Virus record (IMG/VR): IMGVR_UViG_2778261448_000009
Location: 1 to 35,006 of that record
Reading direction: 5' to 3' (one strand)
DNA: 35,006 nucleotides
Origin: a virus
Lineage: Duplodnaviria > Heunggongvirae > Uroviricota > Caudoviricetes
In this document: positions 1-33,967 of the stretch, piece by piece
How the letters are laid out: each line of letters opens with the position of its first letter
Position numbering within the stretch: position 1 is the first letter of the stretch
Notes under the pieces: generated by a model
What the model was told of the DNA's origin: nothing
The model's input: only the letters and a program-made list of their open reading frames with translations
The model's database searches: none
Position numbers and translations under genes: made by a program

Positions 1-942
1 TTATTGGCAGTAAGAAAAGTTAGTACCATACATTTCATCATGAAGCATTGCAGCATTGCGTTTCTGTTCTTCTTCCTCGTCTTCTACATCACTAGAGAAA
101 TAGGATTTTCCCTTGAAGGAACGAAGCAATTGCAGTGCAGCCATCGGATCACGCATCACATCGATTTTCACTTCTACTTCATCATTTGCGGCCTCATCAG
201 CCGCGTTTTCAACTACTGCTACCGGAGCAACTTCTTTAGCTTTCAGTTCTTCAATCTCAGATTTCTGTGCTTCAATAATCTGGTCTTTTTCTTCCAGTGC
301 AGCTTTCAGTTCTGCGATCTGTGCTTCCAGTGCAGCAAAGCGATCTTCAACAACAGGAGAAACAGCATTAACCTGTGCTTCCAGTTCCAGAAATGCTTCG
401 CAAGATTCAATACGTTCTTTCTCTTCACCTTCATAAGCAACCAGTTCTACAACTTCTTTTTCGGTAGCGTGGCTGTTAAAGAATACAGCAAAGTAAGGAT
501 TGCCGGATTTAGTGAAGTTCAGTTTAGCTTTTCCGGTAACTTCTTTACGACGACCGAAGGTGATCTGGCAATCAGCGGTATCCTGAAAATCCATGTTAGG
601 AGCGGAAACGATAGCAGTATCACCAGCAATAACCAGGTGGAACAGTTCAGAAGAGTTCTTAACGGTGAAAGTAACGATGTGGTCTACTGCAACGTCTTTA
701 GCAGGTTTAACGCGGTCGATTGCTTTACGAATGCCGTTAGGCAGTTTACCGTCAACACCAAAGCCAGCCGCGATCAGTGCTTCACGATGTGCTTTAAAGC
801 CAGCGAAAGCGGATTTCTGCTGTGCAAAGGAAACATGAGCAACAACTTTCGGCTGAATCTTCTTGTTTGCTTCGGTTCCAAATTTGATAACTGCTTTAGC
901 GTTGGTTACTTCGTTAGTGAAAAAGTTAGCGGAAAATAACAT
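1..942 (-). CDS. hypothetical protein, 313 aa: N-terminal globular region, central coiled-coil (AALEAQIAELKAALEEKDQIIEAQKSEIEELKAK), acidic C-terminal stretch
   Basis: Complete minus-strand ORF; revcomp shows AGGAG 8 nt before the ATG at 942-940 and a TAA stop at 3-1. The plus-strand ORF 4-939 is low-complexity antisense. Function not recognised. Confidence 0.6.
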   Translation of the reverse strand: MLFSANFFTNEVTNAKAVIKFGTEANKKIQPKVVAHVSFAQQKSAFAGFKAHREALIAAGFGVDGKLPNGIRKAIDRVKPAKDVAVDHIVTFTVKNSSELFHLVIAGDTAIVSAPNMDFQDTADCQITFGRRKEVTGKAKLNFTKSGNPYFAVFFNSHATEKEVVELVAYEGEEKERIESCEAFLELEAQVNAVSPVVEDRFAALEAQIAELKAALEEKDQIIEAQKSEIEELKAKEVAPVAVVENAADEAANDEVEVKIDVMRDPMAALQLLRSFKGKSYFSSDVEDEEEEQKRNAAMLHDEMYGTNFSYCQ

Positions 943-988
943 TATAAATACTCCTGTGGAAAGTTAGTTTTAATTGTTCATCGCAAAA

Positions 989-1025
989 GCCTCCTTGTTG
1001 CCGCAAGGGGGCTTTTTTATTTTTA
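989..1025. terminator. hairpin flanked by T-runs on both strands (possible bidirectional rho-independent terminator)
   Basis: 9-bp stem GCCTCCTTG/CAAGGGGGC with one G-U wobble, 6-nt loop, then TTTTTTATTTTT on the plus strand; the minus strand has TTTT after the stem. Confidence 0.5.
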
Positions 1026-1056: not shown

Positions 1057-1239
1057 TTACCACACCTCTGCGGTAATCTTTACGCGAATATCATACTTCT
1101 TTAAGAGTTTATGAAAGGTTGATTTATCGATACCCTCATTTTTAAACCACTCTTCAATTCTCACACCCGGCGTTAACTCAAAGTAGCGTTTAGCCATTTC
1201 TAAGATGATTTCGCGAGTGAACTTAACAGGTCGTGCCAT
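1057..1239 (-). CDS. small helix-turn-helix-like DNA-binding protein, 60 aa
   Basis: Complete ORF with TAA stop; the segment GIDKSTFHKLLKKYDIRV looks like an HTH recognition helix. Function inferred from the motif only. Confidence 0.45.
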   Translation of the reverse strand: MARPVKFTREIILEMAKRYFELTPGVRIEEWFKNEGIDKSTFHKLLKKYDIRVKITAEVW

Positions 1240-1702
1240 CTCGAATCCTCCTACAATGTGGATTAATGATTTCTTAAAAAAGAGCGTTAACCGCTCACTA
1301 TTATTTATATGGGGATTGTATTTTATTTTTCAACCCCTCACATTTATCTCTTATATATGTATTTATAACAGAGATATGTTAAAATGTTATTCAGATGTTA
1401 TCAGACGTGTTAAATGTGTTAAACCGCAGCACGAATTGCTAAAGCGGAGAGCACGAATTAACCAAATTGATGTATATTCAATCAATTTAGAAAAAGGCAT
1501 AGCACTTTTTGCTAAAGCGGTGAGCATTAATTGAGCTATGAATTGTAAAGATTTGTTACAAGATTTTCTCTCAGATCCAAATCTTCACAGACATATAACA
1601 ATTTAACACGGTGATAACAATAGGAAGGAAAATCGGTAAATTTTCACTTTCAATACAAATATTATAACATATTTATCTCTAATTGTCAAGTGTAGCACCG
1701 AT

Positions 1703-1751
1703 CCTACACAGTGTCAACAAAGGATTTTCAAACCTACACTAGCCCTACACT
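1703..1751. repeat. CCTACAC repeats (3 copies) with a GTGTAG/CTACAC dyad
   Basis: CCTACAC at about 1703, 1733 and 1744; dyad AGTGTAG-caccgatc-CTACACA at about 1690-1712. Confidence 0.5.
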
Positions 1752-1758
1752 ATGAAAA

Positions 1759-1933
1759 TTGCCCCTGAATTTTGCCCCTGAACCAAAATCCCCTAGATTT
1801 CACTATCCCATTTTTGCCCCTGAAACCTACTATTTTTGCCCCTGAAAATCTAATTTTTGCCCCTGAAATTTGCCCCCGAAAAGGATTGGTGAGAAAAACT
1901 CTTTATAAAACATTAACTTAGTGAGGGGCAAAA
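1759..1933. repeat. iteron array: six direct copies of TTGCCCC(T/C)GAA plus one inverted near-copy
   Basis: Copies start at 1759, 1772, 1814, 1836, 1857 and 1870 (spacings 13, 42, 22, 21, 13 bp); a degenerate copy TCCCCTAGA at about 1790; inverted copy GAGGGGCAAAA at 1923-1933. No ORF overlaps. Confidence 0.8.
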
Positions 1934-2064
1934 CGGGGAATCGGGCGTGCATAGATATTATATAACACATTCGCTACGCTCATGTGTAAAACCAAAAACA
2001 ACAAATAACCAAAAAGATATTAGGAGGGCTTTGCCCGACTGCGCGAAGCGCCAACCAATTGCTT

Positions 2065-2304
2065 CTAGTAACAACTAATTTAAACTAGATGATACTAGAT
2101 GGTCTTAGAAGGAATTAACTAGTTTGCTCGCTCGCTTCGCTCACTCTCAAACGTCTGCGACGCCACTGCGTGGCATCGAGAATCACTTCTGAAAGGATTT
2201 TCTTGAAAGGGATTTTAAACTAGTTACTAACTGATTCTAGAAAGATAGTAATAATCACTTTGAAGATAATAGTAGTTAACTGGTTACTAGATGATTCTAG
2301 ATCA
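2065..2304. repeat. CTAG-rich repeat cluster (8 CTAG in about 240 bp) with direct repeats ACTAGATGAT and TGATTCTAGA, interleaved with GC-rich dyads
   Basis: CTAG at 2065, 2085, 2095, 2119, 2220, 2237, 2287 and 2297; ACTAGATGAT at 2084 and 2286; TGATTCTAGA at 2232 and 2292; GCGAAGCG (2045) inverted as CGCTTCGC (2133); GCCACtgcGTGGC at about 2162-2174. Confidence 0.75.
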
Positions 2305-2330
2305 CTTTAATGATCATGAAAGGTATTGGT

Positions 2331-2359
2331 ATCCCTTCGGGATTGCAACCTTCGGTTGC
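2331..2359 (+). other. two adjacent stem-loops with UUCG tetraloops (candidate RNA structural element in the leader of the 2562 gene)
   Basis: ATCCC-TTCG-GGGAT at 2331-2343 and GCAACC-TTCG-GGTTGC at 2345-2359; no U-run follows, so it is not a classical terminator. Confidence 0.45.
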
Positions 2360-2561
2360 TAAATTGCTTCCGGATTATTATTTCTCCAAAAGAAAGATTC
2401 TTATATTCTAAAGATACTTCTTCGTTTTGATGATGATTTAATCAAAATCTATGAAGGAGGCGAAGCCGACTGAATACCAATTCCTTTCAAATTAGACAAA
2501 AATTTCTCGTTATAAATAATAGTGAACTTACTTTGATTCACTTTTTTAGAGGATTTCCACT

Positions 2562-3011
2562 ATGATCAATACTAAAACTCCTTTCATTCTTCTGGGTCTG
2601 AACCATGATGATAATCTGGCTATGATGCATGTTTTCGCTAATCGTGGTTATAACATCATTCGTCATTCCGAAGACTCCAATTTCTCAACTGCTTTCTATG
2701 CTCTTAAACGTAATGGTCGCCCTACGGTGATCGTAGACTGCTTTACTGATGAAGGTCGTGAACAATACAACAACATTCCGGCAATTATTGTTCGTGATGA
2801 CCTGCCGTTTGATGTTCGTGAATATGACGTTGATTTAGGCTCTTACTATGGGATCGCCGATCTTGACCAGATTATGGCTGATTATGGTAAACAACCCGCT
2901 CAGGAAGCCCCAGAACACGATGAACAAGACGAAGATGACGACTACACACCAATCTGTTTCTCTTCTCACGGTGGCTTCTACGGTTACGATGAAGGCTTAG
3001 ATATGCTGTAA
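2562..3011 (+). CDS. hypothetical strongly acidic protein, 149 aa (candidate early anti-restriction or DNA-mimic protein, speculative)
   Basis: GAGG-type RBS before the ATG; I count about 29 D/E against 10 K/R, with a C-terminal EAPEHDEQDEDDDY cluster; first ORF downstream of the 1.3 kb noncoding region. Confidence 0.6.
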   Translation: MINTKTPFILLGLNHDDNLAMMHVFANRGYNIIRHSEDSNFSTAFYALKRNGRPTVIVDCFTDEGREQYNNIPAIIVRDDLPFDVREYDVDLGSYYGIADLDQIMADYGKQPAQEAPEHDEQDEDDDYTPICFSSHGGFYGYDEGLDML

Positions 3012-3046: not shown

Positions 3047-3075
3047 TTGACAAAATTTTCTGACTTTTTTATGAT
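3047..3075 (+). promoter_or_regulatory. sigma70-like promoter: TTGACA, 17-bp spacer, TATGAT
   Basis: Exact -35 hexamer at 3047-3052 and near-consensus -10 at 3070-3075; further TTGACA/TTGTCA boxes at 3034 and 3084; lies upstream of the 3132 gene. Confidence 0.5.
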
Positions 3076-3131: not shown

Positions 3132-3464
3132 ATGAAAGAATTTACCATCACTAAATCCCTGTATGACTGGACTGTTAAAATCTCCGGCAAAACCGTTTCT
3201 GTAAGCCCTAGCCATGTAGAAAATGATTGGGGCGTATCCCGTGAAACTATCTCCCGTAGTATGCATGTTCCGTTTGATCTGATGTCCTTAACTGGTATTC
3301 ATGCAATGCTGGAAGTTCGCGAACAATTCGAAGCTGGTAATCACAATGCGACTCCAGTTAACAATCACCTTCTTACTAATGAAGAACGTGAAATCATCGA
3401 AAACTGGCGTTATGAATATGCGATTCCTTATTATGAAGAAGATCAGGTAGAAATCGATTGGTAA
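3132..3464 (+). CDS. hypothetical acidic protein, 110 aa, with an HTH-like segment (GVSRETISRSM); weak candidate for a small terminase or regulator
   Basis: RBS AGAGGA before the ATG; TAA stop; no recognisable family by eye. Confidence 0.5.
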   Translation: MKEFTITKSLYDWTVKISGKTVSVSPSHVENDWGVSRETISRSMHVPFDLMSLTGIHAMLEVREQFEAGNHNATPVNNHLLTNEEREIIENWRYEYAIPYYEEDQVEIDW

Positions 3465-4653: not shown

Positions 4654-4887
4654 TCAAAAACCTGTTGCTTCTACGATCTGACCATCACCGATCTGAACAT
4701 AGAATTTAATGTCTAACTTCTTCATATTCTTATAGAATTGGGCGATTGAGATCCCATGTTCACTAAGAATCTGTTCTTTCGCTTCCTTACCACGATCCGC
4801 TGTATAGTAAGCGTAGGCAATATCAGCCATCTGTTCAGCGTTAAAACGGCAAGGACGACCGCGAGTAGCTTTAGTAGTCATAGTCAT
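4654..4887 (-). CDS. small putative DNA-binding protein, 77 aa
   Basis: Complete ORF ending in TGA; N-terminal TRGRPCRF and an HTH-like ISIAQFYKNMKKLDI segment. Confidence 0.5.
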   Translation of the reverse strand: MTMTTKATRGRPCRFNAEQMADIAYAYYTADRGKEAKEQILSEHGISIAQFYKNMKKLDIKFYVQIGDGQIVEATGF

Positions 4888-4915: not shown

Positions 4916-5521
4916 TTATTTAGAGGACTTACATTTTATCGGAAAAAGTTCTCCATCGTCAATACTCATAAAGAACTCTACCTTAATCCCGTACTTCCTC
5001 AGCCGTGAATAATATGTACCCCGACTAATATCAACCTTGCGAAGCACTTCGAAGAACCCTGTAGGATCGTTGTAATAGTGGCTATATTTCACGTTAGCGA
5101 GTTCAACGAATAGTTCCCTTGTATCACCATAGCCTTTCTTGAAAGCCTCGTTACGATAGCGTGTAATTGCGTGATTCAATCTCTTCTGTTTCAACACTTC
5201 TCGGATCGGTGTCCACTGCAAACGATAGATAGGACCGTCATCCACTCGATAATAACGCTTGATATCAAAATCAAACCAATCTCGGACTCTCCGAAACTCT
5301 GTATGTGATGTTCTATGCTTCTTAAAGAAGTTGTGAACGTCTGTATAACCATTATCGCGGTAAAACTCTATTAAAATCTCTTTCGCTTCCTCACGACTAA
5401 AGCCAGATGTTGTGTAGTCGGTTTTTAAATGCTTATGCTTAACTGGCAAACGATATTCATGATCGGTACAACAAGACAAGGCTAATTCTACTTCATCTCT
5501 TTGTTGCTGATTAATTAGCAT
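4916..5521 (-). CDS. hypothetical basic protein, 201 aa, with HTH-like segments
   Basis: Complete ORF with TAA stop; segments such as [14 protein letters not shown] resemble the HTH of the 60-aa protein at 1057-1239; function unknown. Confidence 0.5.
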
Positions 5522-5606: not shown

Positions 5607-7511
5607 ATGAAACTGATTTCAAATAAGGCAAAATTAAAAAAGATTCTCAAAAATGCAGCCAAATATATTACGCCACCGCCTAAGCTCCTTCCTTCTGAAT
5701 GGTGCGAAGCGAATCTAACGCTAGTCGATGGTCCTCGTGCTGGGGATAAAGTTAAATTACTGTCATTTCAGAAAGGCATGATTGATGCTCCTTTCCTTGA
5801 GAAGAAAAAGAAGTACGTTTTTTGTACGAGTGCACAGATCGGAAAGACGACCATCATGTCAGGGATTATGTTTAACCAGATGGCAAACGATCCGTGTAAT
5901 ATCATTATCGGGCAAAGTACCGCTAAAGAAGTGGCTATGTACTTGAATACTAAGATCCGTCCTTCTATTGAAGCATGTCCGGCATTACAGGAAGTGGTAA
6001 CAGATAAGAATGATCGTAATGCGGTAAACAACAATAACCAGATTCAGCTAAAAACAAACCATTTCCTTTACATGGTTTCTTTGACCAGTCCTTCAAGTTT
6101 GCGCGGGCGTACTGCCAAGTTAGGGATTGTAGACGAATGCGACGCAGCAACAATCACCGAAGAAGGTTGCCCGGTGGCACTAACTGCAAACCGTTTAACT
6201 ACCTTTGGTGATGAAGCTCGATTGATTGTTTCTAGTACCCCGACCAATAAGCTGGGAATTATTAACCAGCAATGGTTATCAAGCGATATGCGTATGTTTT
6301 TTGTTCCGTGTCCTCATTGCGGGGAACACCAGGTGATCGAGTGGGAAAACGTACAGTTTGAATGGCGTAACATTGATGGTAAGAACTTACCCGATCCTGA
6401 TACCGCTCGTTATATTTGCCCCCACTGTAAGAACGCATGGACAGAAGGAGAGCGGATCAGGGCGGTGGCACAAGGAGAGTGGAGAGCAACCCGTGAAAGT
6501 GAAGTAGCAGGATTCTGGATCAGCCGTCTGTATTCACCTTTCAGCACGATCCGCGCTTGTGTGGTTGATTTTAGTCATGCGTGGCAATCCTTTGATTTAC
6601 AATCATTTTATAACACCGTGTTAGGCAAGGTATACGACGATCAGGACACGGCAGTAGAAGCAAATGAACTGGAACAACTCAAAACAGATGTTTCTATCGA
6701 GAATATCCCTGATGACGTGATTTTCTTGTGTGCGGGTACTGACCAGCAATTAGATCGCGCAGAAACTACAATCATGGGCGTGGCAAAGGATAAGATTTAT
6801 ATTCTGGATCATCGCAGCTTTTACGATCATAACTGTGAACGATATGAATCCCCTGTATGGGATAGATTAATCAACTTCCATAAAACCAAATTTACTACTG
6901 TATCGGGTGATCGTGTTCCTATGCTCGCCAGCTTCCTTGATACATCGAACGGTCGATTCACTCAAGCCGGATACCGTATTTGCGGCAAGTGGAAGAACTT
7001 ACACGCTATCAAAGGTAGTTCTGCTGGTAACGCTCCGATCATTCCGGTTAAACCTACCCGCACAGGTGGTCATGAATTGCTTATGTTGGGTGTTAACGTG
7101 GGTAAAACTGCATTTCGTGAAATGTTGGCTAGGAACCTGAAAGATAATCCTCATATTAGCTTAGAAATATCAGACACCGTTCCTGATGATTATTTCGATC
7201 AGCTTTTAAGTGAATCTGTTAAGCGTACTACTACTGGCGTGAGATGGGTAAAGAACCCAGGCGTTAGGAACGAGGCGCTCGACTGCGCCGTGTATGCTAC
7301 AGCGGCTTCTCGCTACGTTCTTTCAAAAATGTCATGGGATAAACTCATTGCAATGAAAGACAGCTTAAACCGTGTTGTCGAAGAACCCGTAAAAGCTCCT
7401 AAATCGCAATCTAACGAGCAAATCGAAGAAACTAAGCCAATCACACGACCACAACGTCAAAACATCGCCAGACGTCCAAATAGAGGACGTAGCTGGATAA
7501 CATCGTTCTAA
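5607..7511 (+). CDS. terminase large subunit, lambda GpA family, 634 aa
   Basis: Motifs shared with my recollection of lambda gpA: CPHCGEHQV (lambda ACPHCGEEQ), [14 protein letters not shown] (lambda YSPFTT), [10 protein letters not shown] (lambda GIDSQLDRYE), [15 protein letters not shown] (lambda RRNEALDCFVYALAA). RBS GAGGG before the ATG. Confidence 0.85.
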
Positions 7512-28810: not shown

Positions 28811-30301
28811 TTATATAGCAATTGTTTTAGTTGCATAGCTGAACTTGTCGGTTAGATAATAGCGGATTCTCTCAAGTGCATGTTTTACCGCATAATTTTT
28901 ATGCTTGACTTTTCCGTTACGACCGAATATACACAGATGATCTATAAGATCCCAGACCGTTGCAATATCCTTAGAACCATGTTTACGCAATGCACGACCG
29001 ATACTCTGACGAACGATAGTTGATTCCTTCACGGGATGACCGAAAATAACATGGTGCAAATTCTTAATTGAAACACCAGTAGAGAAAACACCATAGGAAG
29101 CAACACAAATGATCCCTGTTTCCCCTTCCGCTAATTTCTTAAATTCATCACGTTCTTCTGTCTTAACTCCACCGTCAATATAATAAACCTTGTCGTGTAC
29201 CTTCTGTAACGCGTCATACATAAGTTTTCCGTGCTTAGTATTGCGGAACATCAGGAATACGTTTTCGCCCTTCTTAGCGAGTTTTAGCGCCAAATTACAA
29301 GCAAACTTATTACGTCGTGGGTTAGACGTAATATACTTGATCTCTTCCGCATATTCTCTACCCTTAACCGCGCTACATTCCTCATCGGTATAACGAAGGA
29401 AAAGACAGTTGATTTTCAGTTTCGTCACTTGACCTTCTTCCATCAGGCGGTCAATACTCACGATCTTAGAAATATCACCGAAAAGACCGACATACTGTAA
29501 AAGATGGCATTTTGATTCTTTAGGGGAACCAGTCATGCCGATTTTAAACTGGCAATGATTCATTCCGTTGATGATATTGGTAATATTTTTGGCACTAGCC
29601 TTATGTGATTCATCAACTATCAACATTCCATATTGTCGGAACCATTCAGGAGGCATCTTGCAAGCTGATTGCCATGTTGAAACAGTGATTAGCCTATCTC
29701 CCGGATGTTTCCCGCTACCACTCATCATTGTATGAATTGCTTCATAAGGGAATAACCGATAATCGATGAAATCATCCCTCATTTGAACCACTAGCGATGT
29801 AGTAGGGACAATGATTAACACTTTTCCGGTGTAGTTCTCTAAGTACCAACGAGACAGCATACAAGCAATCAATGACTTACCCGCACTGGTAGGAAGAACC
29901 AGCATTCTACGGCGATTATGAATACCCTGAAAGACTGCCTCCCTTTGATACCAGTAAGGATTGATTTTATTGGAACCGGAATACACTTCTAGGGAATCAA
30001 TCCATTCATTAATCGCGTCTTTGGTTACATCTTCCTTCTCAAGCAATCGCGGGTCAATCCAGACTGAATAGCCCATATTTTTAACGAAGACACCCAACGT
30101 TTTTAATAGTCCAATTGGTAGGGTATTTTCATGCGTAAACAGTCTTATTCGTCCATCCCAGCCGGAATACTTGTAGCGGGGGCTAAACCTAGCCCCTTCA
30201 ACCTCAAACGAGAAATAATCCCTTAATTCCATTCCGATAGAAGGAGAGCAATCAACCTTAACGAAACTGTAATCTTGAAAATGAATTTTAATATCTTGCA
30301 T
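28811..30301 (-). CDS. uvsW: UvsW-like SF2 DNA helicase (T4 UvsW homolog), about 496 aa
   Basis: Near-collinear with T4 UvsW as I recall it: MQDIKIHFQDYSFVKVDC..., PYWYQREAVFQGIHNRRRMLVLPTSAGKS (Walker A), LIIVPTTSL, MLIVDESH (motif II), YIDGGV, ICVASYGVFSTGVSIKNLHHV, GRALRKHGSKDIATVWDLID. I place the start at the ATG at 30301-30299, overlapping the upstream stop as TAATG. Confidence 0.85.
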   Translation of the reverse strand: MQDIKIHFQDYSFVKVDCSPSIGMELRDYFSFEVEGARFSPRYKYSGWDGRIRLFTHENTLPIGLLKTLGVFVKNMGYSVWIDPRLLEKEDVTKDAINEWIDSLEVYSGSNKINPYWYQREAVFQGIHNRRRMLVLPTSAGKSLIACMLSRWYLENYTGKVLIIVPTTSLVVQMRDDFIDYRLFPYEAIHTMMSGSGKHPGDRLITVSTWQSACKMPPEWFRQYGMLIVDESHKASAKNITNIINGMNHCQFKIGMTGSPKESKCHLLQYVGLFGDISKIVSIDRLMEEGQVTKLKINCLFLRYTDEECSAVKGREYAEEIKYITSNPRRNKFACNLALKLAKKGENVFLMFRNTKHGKLMYDALQKVHDKVYYIDGGVKTEERDEFKKLAEGETGIICVASYGVFSTGVSIKNLHHVIFGHPVKESTIVRQSIGRALRKHGSKDIATVWDLIDHLCIFGRNGKVKHKNYAVKHALERIRYYLTDKFSYATKTIAI

Positions 30302-30870
30302 TAGTTCCACTCCACACTTGCAATATTCTTTATATTGTTTAGTGATTTATTGCAGTAGTGGAATGTTTCAGTTTTGCCGTATTCAATCCCGCCTATACCC
30401 ACATCCAGTAATCTCTTTATTGCTCTTTCAGTGGCTAAAGCATGTTTCATTGATGGCATTTCACCAGCAAAGACAATATCAAAGTTATGACCGGGATTGC
30501 GTACACCCAGATTAATGCGTCGCTTGATGATTGACTTTGTAACACCAAATTTACCAATATCCCCTGATTTCATTACATAGAGATAAGGCACACCCGCTTT
30601 ATATTGAAAGTAATCACTTTTGAGACATGCACAGCGTTTACCTTCATTAAGCAGGTTGGTAGCTGATTTGTCGGCTCTATTGCCGCATCGGGTACATGTA
30701 AGAGCAATTCTTGAATGAAGCCCTTTAAACTCACCCAGAAAGCCATGAAAGACTAACGGTAAGTCCTTCTCTTTGATGTGAGTCAGAATGCGTTGTTCTA
30801 ATGCCGATGGAGTTACAGCACGGGAGGATTTAGGAGTAAAAACAATATCTTTAGCCATTACTGGAATCAT
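30301..30870 (-). CDS. T5orf172-domain (GIY-YIG-like) protein with N-terminal zinc-ribbon-like CxxC pairs, 189 aa
   Basis: PYLYVMKSGDIGKFGVTKSIIKRRINLG fits the T5orf172 signature as I recall it; CTRCGN...CAC cysteine pairs; GAGG before the ATG; translationally coupled to the helicase gene. Confidence 0.55.
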   Translation of the reverse strand: MIPVMAKDIVFTPKSSRAVTPSALEQRILTHIKEKDLPLVFHGFLGEFKGLHSRIALTCTRCGNRADKSATNLLNEGKRCACLKSDYFQYKAGVPYLYVMKSGDIGKFGVTKSIIKRRINLGVRNPGHNFDIVFAGEMPSMKHALATERAIKRLLDVGIGGIEYGKTETFHYCNKSLNNIKNIASVEWN

Positions 30871-31023
30871 ATAGACCTCACTTTTTAACTTATAGGCATA
30901 ACCTCAATATGGTTGGTTTGGGATTTAGGGTCGCGTATTATACACATCCAGATAGAGAATGCAATAGTAAGACAATTTTCTCTAATAAATAGTAGTGATC
31001 TTATTATTTTAGAGGAAACTACT

Positions 31024-32199
31024 ATGAAACTTGCTTACGCTGCCGAAATTCCTTTTGTTAAGAAAACTCGCGGTTTATCGCCGGAAGAGTACCAACAACG
31101 AATCATCGCTAAACTGGAACCTGCTTTCGTATTTGGTGGATTTATCCTACCGTGGAAGGGTAATCACACTTACTTTCGAATCTACAATTTAGATACACAA
31201 GAATATAAGGACTACAAATTACGCAAACTGGAAGATACTAACGGGGGGGAGTTATTCCAGACTGAAAAGGCTGTATGGTTGAAAATGGAATCTCGTTGTA
31301 ATGAGAAGGGAAAGAAATTCCTCGGATGGCAAGGAGAATGGAAAGGGCGAAATAGAACGAAAGCCCGTGTTTTGTGCCCTGAACACAATCAAATCATGAC
31401 GCCATCTCTATTACATGCTCTCAAAGATGATTTCGATTTTGATTGCAAAATCTGTATGGCTGAAAAATCCCAACGGGTAAGAAGTGGCAAGACTTTTGAT
31501 GAAGTTATTAAGGACAAAGAGACAATCATCAATGCACGTTGCGAGAGTACGCCTTACACCTTCAAAGGATTCATCATAAACACCCCACACCTAAAGGATG
31601 TTAAATTTAAAACCTATTGCAAGACACATAACCACGAATGGGAATCTCATTTAAGATGTGCTGATTCTTTCACTTGTCCGCTTTGCATTAAAGACCAACT
31701 GGTGCAACTGTCTAACCGGACTTATCAGGGTAAGGCTAGTTTCTACATTCAATTATTAGATGACAAATTTATTAAATTTGGAATCACTACCCGGAAACCA
31801 GAAGAACGAATGAGAGAGCAAACCAGAAAGAGCAACTTCACTCACCGCTTAATCTTTACTCATGAGTTTGAGGATGGTTGGAAAGCCGTTGATTTAGAGC
31901 ATGAAGTAAAACAACGCTTCAAGACTCATGCAGCACCCTACAAAGATTTCAAGGATGGATGGTCGGAAACTCTGACTATTGATGAGTTACCACACTTACA
32001 GCAACTGGTTTATGACTACCTAACCAATCAACCGGACGAGGCTAATATGTGGGTATCCCCGAAAGATGTATTTGATGACGATACATTCAAGCTACATACT
32101 CACTTCTACGGCATCAATAAACCGGAATTTTTCTGTATTGATGACGACAGTCCTGATTTAATGGATGAATACTTTAATACTCTCTTAGATGCTGCCTAA
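31024..32199 (+). CDS. zinc-finger-rich protein with C-terminal T5orf172-like domain, about 391 aa
   Basis: I place the start at the ATG at 31024 after GAGGAA. Several CxxC/CxxH pairs (CPEHNQ, CKIC, CKTHNHEW, CPLC); C-terminal FYIQLLDDKFIKFGITTRKPEERMRE resembles T5orf172/GIY-YIG. Confidence 0.5.
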   Translation: MKLAYAAEIPFVKKTRGLSPEEYQQRIIAKLEPAFVFGGFILPWKGNHTYFRIYNLDTQEYKDYKLRKLEDTNGGELFQTEKAVWLKMESRCNEKGKKFLGWQGEWKGRNRTKARVLCPEHNQIMTPSLLHALKDDFDFDCKICMAEKSQRVRSGKTFDEVIKDKETIINARCESTPYTFKGFIINTPHLKDVKFKTYCKTHNHEWESHLRCADSFTCPLCIKDQLVQLSNRTYQGKASFYIQLLDDKFIKFGITTRKPEERMREQTRKSNFTHRLIFTHEFEDGWKAVDLEHEVKQRFKTHAAPYKDFKDGWSETLTIDELPHLQQLVYDYLTNQPDEANMWVSPKDVFDDDTFKLHTHFYGINKPEFFCIDDDSPDLMDEYFNTLLDAA

Positions 32200-32272: not shown

Positions 32273-33952
32273 TTAAATTCCAAATTCCTGTAATGGACCT
32301 GGTATTTCCTCTTCTGGTTTCCAGTTCTTATCTGTCAGCATGTCTAAACATGGATGCAGAACAAGCCCGTTGCTCTCCAGAATCTGCCTATCATTGATAG
32401 TCTTCAAATCGACAAATATTTGTCCTTTCCTCGTTCCTCTTGAATTTTCTATTACAACTCTCTGGGTCTTTCCATCGATGTATTCCAGTACAAACAAGTT
32501 TTTGTTTCTGTCAATCCTGCTACACCCGATCCGCTTTAGAGCTTGCTTAATCTTAAACCGGACCTTTAGTCGTTCCTCGTTGTAAACATCTTCTAAATCA
32601 AATTCTGCGAGCTTCTCCCAGCCTTGAGAGTCAACAGAATACATTTCCTCTTCTGCCATCTTGATCTGATTGTAGAGTGTTTCACGCTCGCTATTGAGGG
32701 TAGTAATCTGATCGGCTAGCTCCTTCGTTGCTCCTGTCATAGCAGAAAGGGCAATCAGGTTATCAATCTTGCGTGATATTTCATCAACCTGTACTTTCAA
32801 CGCCGGAACCGGATTAGCCTTGTCCTCAGCAATCCAGATTTTATCAGCCAGCAATTGCAATACAGCTTTCTCTAATTGATCACCTCGAAAACTCCAGTTT
32901 GGATGCTCGCAATCAAGTCTACGTGAACGGGTCGCATCACATGTATAACGATACTGGTCAGAACGTTTGTTCGTTCCCTTCACTTTAACCATAGCGCAAC
33001 CGCAATGATCACATTTCAATAGGCCAATACCACTAAGCAGGGGGATCGGTTTAACTTCTTCCTTGTCTCCAAAGTTCCATGCTCTAGCACCAATATTTTT
33101 CTTAAGGTGATAGAACGTAGGGTCATCAATAACACGAGGGTAATAATCCTTTAACTCATAGTTAACGCCATCTACAGATATTTCCTTGATACCAATCAAA
33201 GCGCGGGTATGAAACAACCTTTCAACCATTGCCCGTGACCATTTTGAATGCTTCTTGTTGCTTACTGCTGGTGGTGGTGCATATGTCTCGTTAAGGTGAT
33301 CCAGTATTTCGGCGGTTGAACGTCCATTCTTCCGTAATTCCACAATCTCCTGAACAACAGGGAAGTATGTAGGATGAGGCAACACATAACCGGAAGTGGT
33401 ATCAGTCCACCACATATTCTTTCCAACTTCCTCGATTGCCACTGCCGGATTCTGGGGATTTTCTTGATGGGCTTTAATCTTAATCAGTGCGCTTGAGTTA
33501 GTACGATTGCGCTTAGTCTGACTTTCCTCATTACCACGGATGAATAAAAGGATGGAGAACATCAGGTCCATCGGATTAGCGGTAACAGTATCCAGCGAGT
33601 AGATCTTGTTATCCATGCCAGTAACAATGGTTATTCCCCTACGGATGATTGAAAGGAATAACTCCTGCGCACTGACAATATCGGCACGGGATAAGCGGTC
33701 CAAGTTTTCAATGAATAGCCAGCTACCAACAGGAACGGATCTACCAATTGCATCAAGGAAACGAGATAGCGCCCCTGTTTTAGAGTTAGCACCCTTAAAC
33801 GCAGATACACCCAGATCCTGATAATCATTTACCAGTTCAAGGTCATACTTTGCCGCAATCTCTCTCGCCATCCTGATTTGTCGTTCATAACTCGAACCAT
33901 CACTCTGACGCATAGACGAGAAGCGAATATACGAATATAGTTTAGTTTTCAT
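32273..33952 (-). CDS. large serine recombinase (candidate integrase), about 559 aa
   Basis: N-terminal resolvase-type catalytic region YSYIRFSSMRQSDGSSYERQ with candidate nucleophile Ser and RLSR; Cys cluster CDHCGCAMVKVKG...YRYTCD (zinc ribbon); coiled-coil region; length typical of large serine recombinases. I place the start at the ATG at 33952; the track begins at an upstream TTG. Confidence 0.8.
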   Translation of the reverse strand: MKTKLYSYIRFSSMRQSDGSSYERQIRMAREIAAKYDLELVNDYQDLGVSAFKGANSKTGALSRFLDAIGRSVPVGSWLFIENLDRLSRADIVSAQELFLSIIRRGITIVTGMDNKIYSLDTVTANPMDLMFSILLFIRGNEESQTKRNRTNSSALIKIKAHQENPQNPAVAIEEVGKNMWWTDTTSGYVLPHPTYFPVVQEIVELRKNGRSTAEILDHLNETYAPPPAVSNKKHSKWSRAMVERLFHTRALIGIKEISVDGVNYELKDYYPRVIDDPTFYHLKKNIGARAWNFGDKEEVKPIPLLSGIGLLKCDHCGCAMVKVKGTNKRSDQYRYTCDATRSRRLDCEHPNWSFRGDQLEKAVLQLLADKIWIAEDKANPVPALKVQVDEISRKIDNLIALSAMTGATKELADQITTLNSERETLYNQIKMAEEEMYSVDSQGWEKLAEFDLEDVYNEERLKVRFKIKQALKRIGCSRIDRNKNLFVLEYIDGKTQRVVIENSRGTRKGQIFVDLKTINDRQILESNGLVLHPCLDMLTDKNWKPEEEIPGPLQEFGI

Positions 33953-33967
33953 ACCATTTCCAAACAA

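Follow-up and report, generated by a model that had tools for sequence, protein, structure and literature searches.

The window analysed here, a stretch of 35,006 nucleotides of DNA from a tailed virus of the class Caudoviricetes (IMG/VR record IMGVR_UViG_2778261448_000009), covers most of a 37-kb uncharacterised Escherichia coli prophage that uses a serine recombinase. Near its left end lies a control region without genes, in which six direct repeats of the unit TTGCCCCYGAA (hereafter type A) form an iteron array. This report concerns that array and gene X, whose product is very probably the protein that binds it; the gene of a small helix-turn-helix (HTH) protein, HTH-60, stands between the two. 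To the right of the array follow the early rightward genes, which encode the 149-aa protein R, then a 110-aa protein and an Rha/antirepressor-type protein. The features are collected in Table 1.

Table 1. Features of the array, its control region and the genes discussed in the text (window coordinates; aa, amino acids; ORF, open reading frame)
Feature	Position	Strand	Basis or remark
Gene X (313 aa), putative cognate iteron-binding protein	1-942	-	0.8 kb from the array
Second strong terminator-like hairpin	985-1016		between HTH-60 and X
HTH-60 gene (60-aa HTH protein)	1057-1239	-	not the partner in repeat specificity
Gene-free control region, 1.3 kb	1240-2561		ORF list
Left spacer, moves with the HTH-60 variant	1240-1621		pairwise BLAST map
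Terminator-like hairpin with T-run	1296-1282		minus strand; directly before the HTH-60 start codon
Repeat-type-specific sub-region	~1621-2183		pairwise BLAST map
Consensus sigma-70 promoter, toward HTH-60 and X	1661-1689	-	TTGACA, 17-nt spacer with TG, TATAAT; 12/12 matches
Three type B cores, CCTACAC	1703-1751	+	at 1703, 1733 and 1744, immediately left of the array
Iteron array, six TTGCCCCYGAA units	1759-1880	+	sequence read, pattern search, repeat finder
Array units	1759-1769, 1772-1782, 1814-1824, 1836-1846, 1857-1867, 1870-1880	+	
Lone type C unit, AAAATCCCCTAGATTTCAC	1785-1803	+	within the array
Conserved A+T-rich box, AAAAACTCTTTATAAAACATTAACTT	1894-1919	+	-10-like TATAAA at 1904-1909, no -35
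Inverted repeat unit, GAGGGGCAAAA	1923-1933, extended to 1939	-	43 bp right of the last direct copy
G+C-rich double-hairpin block	2022-2053		
CTAG-rich repeat family	2060-2320		upstream of the first rightward gene
Sub-region common to all types	2183-2561		pairwise BLAST map
Element of ~80 nt	2373-2455		
Protein R gene (149 aa)	2562-3011		first early rightward gene
77-aa protein gene (HTH-77)	4654-4887		
201-aa protein gene	4916-5521		
gpA-type large terminase (TerL) gene	5607-7511		family scan; no small-subunit gene adjacent
Accessory module	28811-32199		
Large serine recombinase gene	32273-33967	-	family scan

Within the array, the first five units read TTGCCCCTGAA and the last reads TTGCCCCCGAA. 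Their start-to-start distances of 13, 42, 22, 21 and 13 bp follow a lattice of 21-22 bp with one 13-bp doublet at either end, and a repeat finder agrees on both the register and the spacings. These values bear out an earlier note on this DNA, which had described the six direct copies, an inverted copy at 1923 and spacings of 21-22 bp and 13 bp. When up to one mismatch was allowed, TTGCCCCYGAA matched exactly six times in the whole 35-kb window, all inside 122 bp; the rest of the window, for which the note had proposed a motif search, holds no further match. Dinucleotide-preserving shuffles gave 0.98 +/- 0.94 matches, and none of 100 shuffles reached six. Among 102 copies from relatives, the conserved unit extends to approximately 15 nt (AtttTTGCCCCTGAAa), with core positions of up to 2.0 bits and spacers of 0.1-0.3 bits; spacings of 13 and 21-22 bp occur most often. 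The inversion comprises an entire unit: positions 1924-1939 are 88% complementary to 1806-1821 (repeat finder, pair I8). Its GGGGC core is kept in seven of nine E. coli loci and in locus L026 of Salmonella, and is altered in locus L023. Compared with the common eight-copy form, the array of the window is a shortened one that has lost approximately 64 bp; most relatives have seven or eight copies, and one has 12. The exclusion of a clustered regularly interspaced short palindromic repeat (CRISPR) array by the same note also holds, as CRISPR repeats measure at least 23 nt and are separated by unique spacers of similar length, and the units here are only 11-15 nt with gaps of 2-31 nt. The features of the sequence support a protein-binding iteron array, neither CRISPR nor chance. 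Of the two functions suggested previously, initiator iterons or small-terminase R sites, the first stands in so far as the repeats appear to be protein-binding iterons, for which an initiator is the best functional guess, and the second was abandoned for the reasons given below.

The clearest evidence on the binding partner comes from relatives, where the note had suggested looking for the motif. It is conserved, without a difference between E. coli and Salmonella. The type A motif was seen in 7-12 copies at eight further E. coli loci. Five others lack it; their arrays, in the same position and on a similar lattice of 13, 21-23 and 44 bp, consist of AAACCTACACTA (type B) or AAATCCCCAAGATTCCA (type C). 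Translation of the neighbouring genes showed that the sole gene changing with the repeat is X, whose product starts with MLFSANFF... where the repeats are of type A, and no similarity was detected by BLASTP between the N-terminal halves of the type A, B and C proteins. For other genera, contigs with an X homologue were fetched and k-mers were counted in their control regions; the gene order was the same in all. In Salmonella, L023 and L026 encode N-domains 64-69% identical to type A and carry the repeat TTGCCCCTGAA, and two diverged A-like proteins, approximately 34% identical in L024 and approximately 46% identical in L027, accompany the related motifs TTGTCCGTGAA and TTGCCCCTC, respectively (all by tblastn). 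L022 of Providencia combines a B-like N-domain with ACCTACACT, and L025 of Proteus combines a new type of N-domain with ATCCCTAG.

A further 33 loci were obtained from IMG/VR, 27 of them usable. Here, A-type proteins were all found with 6-8 A repeats and B-type proteins all with 5-8 B repeats. Two of these loci encode a new N-domain, MKQNNFSITVYS, and contain no known motif; approximately 20 copies of TCCCCGYG were then found at the same spot. This class, type E, was recognized first from the protein, and the new repeat then lay where the pairing had predicted it. Its repeats are spaced at 11-13 bp and form two blocks that flank an A+T-rich core; copy numbers are 5-12 in types A and B and approximately 20 in type E.

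Altogether, 49 distinct loci from Escherichia, Salmonella, Providencia and Proteus have a direct-repeat array, always at the same spot and on a similar lattice, and their motifs fall into seven classes, each matched with one type of X N-domain without exception in the 49 loci. Type A (TTGCCCCYGAA; 27 loci) goes with the N-terminus MLFSANFFTNEV..., and all 27 relatives with a type A protein have the motif in 6-12 copies. Type B (CCTACRCT; 16 loci, including Providencia) goes with MKNSKRITFN..., type C (TCCCCAAGATTCCA; one locus) with MKNVKIWFYDN..., type D (ATCCCTAG; the Proteus locus) with MNNTKFTINV..., and type E (two loci) with the N-domain named above; the two diverged A-like proteins with their own motifs complete the set. 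In L061, a type A N-domain is joined to the other kind of C-terminal tail and the A repeats are retained, so it is the N-domain that decides the repeat type.

The pairing persists although the DNA between X and the array recombines. The HTH-60 gene and the left spacer form an independent module, as mapped by pairwise BLAST in 20 relatives, and its two main variants occur with A arrays at at least 17 and 8 loci and with B arrays at 8 and 8 loci. Recombination has therefore taken place repeatedly between X and the array without ever breaking their pairing, which is thus not mere linkage. R, HTH-77, the small terminase (TerS) and the N-terminus of TerL also reassort relative to the repeat type. 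The array motif is identical between E. coli and Salmonella, and the flanks are just 73-78% identical. A perfect pairing amid reassorting neighbours argues that the array is the cognate iteron array of X, and it is very likely that the repeats are specific binding sites of the X N-domain.

The candidate binders put forward in the earlier note did not include X. Besides host factors, they were three small HTH proteins, which are rejected as partners because their variants do not follow the repeat type. HTH-60 occurs in three variants and R in two, and every variant was seen with both A and B repeats; one and the same HTH-60 protein, WP_000113735.1, was found beside the A arrays of L003 and L004 and beside the B arrays of L010 and L014. 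The variants of the 77-aa protein are likewise shuffled, and the gene at 3132-3464 is missing from many relatives that keep the array. As a side observation, the 60-aa and 77-aa proteins and the C-terminus of the 201-aa protein have a common HTH-like motif, I-x-x-S/T-F/Y-x-K-L/M-K-K-Y/L-x-I-K, and look like paralogues.

A similar argument applies to packaging, in which the repeats would be cosB- or pac-type sites recognised by the small terminase or by an accessory factor of the terminase. In favour of it, the window encodes a large terminase of the gpA (cos) family without a neighbouring small-subunit gene, and X shares with small terminases the layout of an N-terminal DNA-binding part, a coiled coil and a C-terminal tail. 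On the other hand, a Nu1-like TerS of 184 aa with an acidic tail is encoded at the left end of the prophage, outside the window (L001, 18785-19339). It has a Nu1-type HTH motif (...KKWQERGMPF..., with the WQERGMP motif), and one homologue is annotated as small terminase. Its gene is 2.4 kb from the array, with the X and HTH-60 genes between, and most type A and type B loci encode it with 88-99% identity. For the N-terminus of TerL, there are identity classes of 100%, 85% and approximately 50%, which are shuffled relative to both the N-type and the tail type of X. Since neither TerS nor the TerL N-terminus is paired with the repeats, these are not terminase R sites, and a packaging role of any kind is scarcely credible. 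The TerS gene is also 6 kb from the TerL gene, with the entire early control region between them, an unusual split of packaging genes.

Some foreign units lie within or beside the type A array. The lone type C unit was probably left behind by recombination or is a site for some other factor; the type C unit is also found in some type B arrays. The three type B cores occur only in those type A loci that have left-spacer module 1, and are therefore probably left over from an exchange of arrays. It appears that units or segments pass between arrays by recombination on their common lattice. In type A, B and C prophages (L001, 24458-24490; also L015 and L016), the terminator TTTTTGCCCCTGAATTTCAGGGGCTTTTTT just past the Rha gene has a hairpin arm that is an exact type A unit, which may be accidental or may hint at how the A repeat arose; the window has another terminator there.

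It may also be asked whether the array needs a regulatory or replicative function at all. It could be a functionless tandem duplication that hitch-hikes with X, or X could form a centromere-like or anchoring complex on it. Copy number changes readily via unequal crossing-over, and the layout of type E, with its two blocks of closely spaced repeats, recalls the parC centromere of plasmid R1. Hitch-hiking, however, fails to explain the 2-bit motif cores among drifting spacers, the identical motifs of E. coli and Salmonella within diverged flanks, and the perfect pairing across a recombining intervening module. Against partition, a serine recombinase has integrated the element in every genome, every match lies in a chromosome, and no partition ATPase (ParA-, ParM- or TubZ-like) was found among the non-structural genes scanned. 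Both ideas, taken as one, are very improbable.

Three parts make up the X protein itself: a basic N-domain (residues ~1-165, isoelectric point (pI) 9.6), a long coiled coil at residues ~180-236, and an acidic tail, the last residues of which are LHDEMYGTNFSYCQ. Types A, B and C have N-domains that share no sequence relationship, but each is basic (pI 9.6-9.8), and the remainder of each protein is acidic (pI 4.1-5.0). Alignment of homologues shows the variable N-domain, the coiled coil and one of two kinds of tail, either acidic and ending in LHDxMYxTxFS or of the form WNKY...F..F.IRKAA, which have recombined independently of the N-domain. No family was matched in Pfam, PHROG or NCBIfam; family scans detected neither an HTH nor a LexA-like cleavage domain; comparison with solved and viral structures gave no fold match, and a sequence search of the PDB with X matched the coiled coil alone. 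The AlphaFold2 (AF2) single-sequence model had a predicted local distance difference test (pLDDT) score of 45.6. With ten homologues, the N-domain reached a pLDDT of 72.5 and a predicted template modelling (pTM) score of 0.72, and in this model a small helical/beta subdomain precedes an up-and-down beta-barrel. When 1.84 billion representatives were searched exhaustively with a profile of the N-domain, only approximately three true, close relatives appeared, together with spurious repeat proteins; with the most distant of these relatives as the query, homologues were found in Salmonella, Providencia and Proteus. The homologues found in further searches are all named 'hypothetical' and come from Enterobacterales. 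A supposed natural chimera of X in strain 14EC029 was rejected, the gene being disrupted by IS3.

The control region provides the setting in which X and the array would act. The first repeat lies 70 bp to the right of the -35 hexamer of the consensus leftward promoter; the equivalent promoter of type B loci is only 11 bp from the repeats, and in the other repeat types equivalent leftward promoters adjoin the arrays. The first terminator-like hairpin is approximately 360 nt past this promoter, and the promoter and the two hairpins suggest a long leader, a non-coding RNA or antitermination control of the leftward unit. Two copies of AGCAC(GAA/TTT)TTGCTAAAGCGG(A/T)GAGCA are present in the leader (1428-1459 and 1501-1532, 73 bp apart), and nearly all relatives, Salmonella among them, have the 17-mer at 1428-1444 with 100% identity, also where the spacer around it differs.

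The hairpins and the long untranslated leader of the leftward unit raise the question of whether X might bind the repeated motif in a transcript and in this way act, for instance, on termination or translation in its own leftward unit; the motifs of the minus strand are G-rich, like some protein-binding RNA repeats. However, no credible promoter that would transcribe the array was found in the window, the control region gave no credible Rfam match (none above the threshold), and spacing by two helical turns together with an inverted unit is a feature of duplex DNA sites. Action at the RNA level is accordingly quite unlikely.

To the right, the A+T-rich box is common to type A, type C and Salmonella type A loci, and if it is a promoter, the last repeat would occupy approximately -46 to -36. 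LexA boxes were not found in the control region or left-spacer module of the window itself. The alternative left-spacer module of relatives contains two or three LexA-box-like sites, CTGT-N8-(A/C)CAG, at control-region positions ~101-221 in L007-L009, L012-L014 and L026; in the Salmonella locus L023, the site TACTGTAAATCCATACAGTA at 270-289 agrees with 17 of 20 consensus positions. These sequences hint at SOS control of the region in part of the family.

Taken together, the array and X may constitute a phage replication origin with X as its initiator, a reading to which we assign a probability of roughly 0.5. The basic N-domain would bind each unit of 11-15 bp, and X would dimerise or oligomerise via its coiled coil, leading to cooperative occupancy of sites two helical turns apart. 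The acidic C-terminal tail would be offered to a partner. Like lambda O or a plasmid Rep protein, X would assemble a nucleoprotein complex on the iterons, melt the adjacent A+T-rich DNA and bring in the host replisome. All of this is inferred: the direct binding, the oligomerisation on the lattice, the origin function and the recruitment of host factors. In the minimal members of the prophage family, no replication protein other than X would be recognisable. The anatomy is origin-like: direct units on a 21-22-bp lattice, a variable copy number, and an A+T-rich box and an inverted unit adjoining, the whole situated between divergent promoter elements. In the type B prophage of strain H2, which is without the UvsW and CapR genes, no initiator, helicase, primase or polymerase is recognisable, so an initiator must be among the unassigned early genes. 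The position of X downstream of a promoter and two terminator-like hairpins fits a delayed lytic function, and the LexA-box-like sites in the leftward unit of some relatives fit a gene that is switched on in lytic growth. A stronger proposal, which is offered tentatively, is that X founds a new class of sequence-specific DNA-binding protein, with a basic N-domain (helix plus beta-barrel) that lacks structural relatives, a coiled coil and an exchangeable tail for a partner. It would be the sole phage-encoded replication factor of a widespread, unstudied family of enterobacterial prophages and, by recruiting the host machinery via its acidic aromatic tail, would start replication at a direct-repeat origin.

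Several observations weigh against an origin. X matches no known initiator family or fold, and none of the 72,556 plasmids and 50,697 phage records searched contains a homologue of it. The control region has a single 8-of-9 match to a DnaA box (1257-1265), with the whole-window count at the chance level and no cluster, and in a helix-stability profile the least stable 40-mers adjoin the array in some relatives only. The layout of type E also resembles the parC site of plasmid R1, which is autoregulatory. In addition, the last repeat touches the -35 position of the conserved -10-like element and the arrays adjoin strong leftward promoters; such closeness of repeats and promoters is equally typical of operators, and X could fill the role of the repressor that is not recognisable in the prophage.

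Part of this evidence is also what would be expected if X were an immunity repressor or early activator that coats the array and controls the flanking divergent promoters. The seven classes would then be immunity or regulatory specificities, not origin specificities. The prophage contains no recognisable CI-like repressor, X points away from the early rightward genes and neighbours an Rha/antirepressor-type gene, and the consensus leftward promoters and the -10-like box, with the inverted unit just downstream of it, are close to the repeats; the lack of a DnaA-box cluster, the inconstant position of the weakest DNA, the parC-like layout of type E and the lack of plasmid relatives of X point the same way. 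Exchangeable modules of a protein and its site are the classical signature of immunity regions in lambdoid phages, and direct-repeat operators are known, for example in the Bacillus phage phi105. On the other hand, an operator of 6-20 direct repeats over 120-290 bp would be unusual, neither an HTH nor a LexA-like cleavage domain is present in X, and a maintenance repressor would not be expected behind two terminator-like hairpins. Of the promoter-like sites, those closest to the first rightward gene (2493-2520 and 3047-3075) are at least 600 bp from the array. A mild objection, resting on a single case, is that the two family prophages of E. coli BS74R-D have identical X proteins, which is uncommon for homoimmune phages and could be explained by gene conversion; two prophages with identical X were seen in one of 35 type A genomes, so few cases exist and gene conversion is possible. 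These prophages, L028 and L029, are located in hicB and ycdX; their HTH-60 proteins are also identical, and their R, Rha, HTH-77 and 201-aa proteins differ.

An operator is possible on these grounds and is the less probable of the two, and all readings other than an origin or an operator are, even together, rather unlikely. The origin and operator readings are not mutually exclusive, because iteron-binding initiators commonly autoregulate.

The prophage that carries the array belongs to an undescribed family. Family scans and the ORF listing indicate a siphovirus-like genome, with a lambda-type portal, a fused protease-capsid gene, lysis genes and tail genes that include an RB49-like distal fibre. 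In E. coli 14EC007, the prophage is a 37-kb insert that splits ycdX, and in other strains hicB is split. A related prophage is present in approximately 60 of 5,426 complete E. coli genomes, always in the chromosome and never on a plasmid. By DNA similarity, relatives were found in E. coli chromosomes only: no related record appeared among the 72,556 plasmids, and none among the 50,697 phages except for the RB49-type tail fibre and an 80-nt intergenic element. The GTDB species representatives scanned contained no relatives, and literature searches on its insertion sites turned up nothing on this prophage. The products of the accessory module are a UvsW-like helicase of 499 aa and a pair of CapR-domain proteins, of which one has an MUG113/T5orf172-like domain; the module is missing from the type B prophage of strain H2, and other genes take its place in the type C prophage.

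Other conserved elements are found to the right of the array. The CTAG-rich family comprises AACTAGTTACTAACTGATTCTAGA and its relatives as well as three copies of T(A/C)GAAAGGGATT; it is kept in types A, B and C and is therefore probably the site of a different, shared regulator. The double-hairpin block (AGGAGGGC..GCCCGACTGCGCGAAGCGC) is near-identical between E. coli and Salmonella, with changes in the loops only, and recurs elsewhere in some relatives; CGCTWCGCTCA occurs two or three times nearby (1970-1983 and 2125-2146). The ~80-nt element is 76-81% identical to intergenic sequences that occur one to three times per RB49-like T4-type phage (Krischvirus), and it may be one of the mobile early-promoter/stem-loop cassettes known from those phages.

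As a concept, an iteron array with a co-varying cognate binding protein is well known. Undescribed so far are the X family with its apparent fold, the placing of an independently recombining module between gene and site, and the prophage family. The analysis gives a concrete, testable role to a family annotated as 'hypothetical' in thousands of Escherichia and Salmonella assemblies, and one to the 1.3-kb 'empty' region of these prophages. If X is an initiator, the prophage family replicates with a single, structurally novel origin-binding protein and would offer a new route of replisome recruitment in E. coli; if X is a repressor, it is a non-HTH immunity protein that acts on long direct-repeat arrays. 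Either way, the seven natural protein-site classes with swappable N- and C-modules provide a set of orthogonal DNA-binding pairs and a clean system for the co-evolution of protein-DNA specificity.

Among known systems, the cosB R sites of lambda and gpNu1 are repeated protein-binding sites of a cos-type phage, as the present repeats would be, and the specificity of the site and that of the protein N-terminus change together between lambda and phage 21. In the present prophages, by contrast, the Nu1-like protein is unchanged when the repeats change, and its gene is not adjacent to them. The parC/ParR system of R1 has many short direct repeats with one- or two-turn spacing that flank a promoter-bearing A+T-rich core and are cooperatively coated. 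Short direct repeats around an A+T-rich core and a dedicated protein are common to both, whereas a partition NTPase and a plasmid state are lacking here, and ParR is a small ribbon-helix-helix protein unlike the 313-aa X with its beta-rich basic domain.

The iteron plasmids P1, F, R6K, pSC101 and RK2 combine Rep proteins with iterons of 17-22 bp. With them, the present locus has in common a direct-repeat lattice of approximately 22 bp, a variable copy number, an inverted partial copy near a promoter and an adjacent cognate gene. In contrast, X is neither a winged-helix Rep_3 nor a RepA-type protein, no cluster of DnaA boxes is present, and the plasmid collection searched contains no homologue of X.

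The PLE satellite of Vibrio cholerae is integrated by a large serine recombinase and replicates with RepA and ori iterons in a non-coding region; RepA has an N-terminal DNA-binding domain and a C-terminal domain and no helicase or primase activity of its own, and PLE relatives naturally exchange whole replication modules (Barth et al., PMC7145576, PMC8263062). The serine-recombinase element, the layout of a putative initiator with N-terminal recognition, the non-coding iterons and the exchange of modules are all found here as well. The fold of X is different from that of RepA and unmatched, and its repeats are short and direct; binding and origin function in PLE were shown by experiment, whereas here both are predicted from sequence.

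Finally, the lambda O protein is an initiator of approximately 300 aa, of which the N-terminal part recognizes a repeat array and the C-terminal part contacts a partner; in lambdoid phages, the O N-domain and the iterons change together, and an A+T-rich stretch lies beside the repeats. The iterons of lambda are located inside the O gene and each is an inverted repeat, whereas those described here are direct repeats in a gene-free region, 0.8 kb from their gene; X has no sequence or fold similarity to O, and no P-like helicase loader is encoded with it. The likeness to ori-lambda extends to the size of the protein, its division into N- and C-terminal parts, the joint change of N-domain and iterons, and the adjacent A+T-rich stretch. 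Recognition by the N-terminal part joined to an exchangeable tail is the domain logic of both lambda O and PLE RepA, and by analogy it favours the reading of the array and X as a putative replication origin and its initiator.

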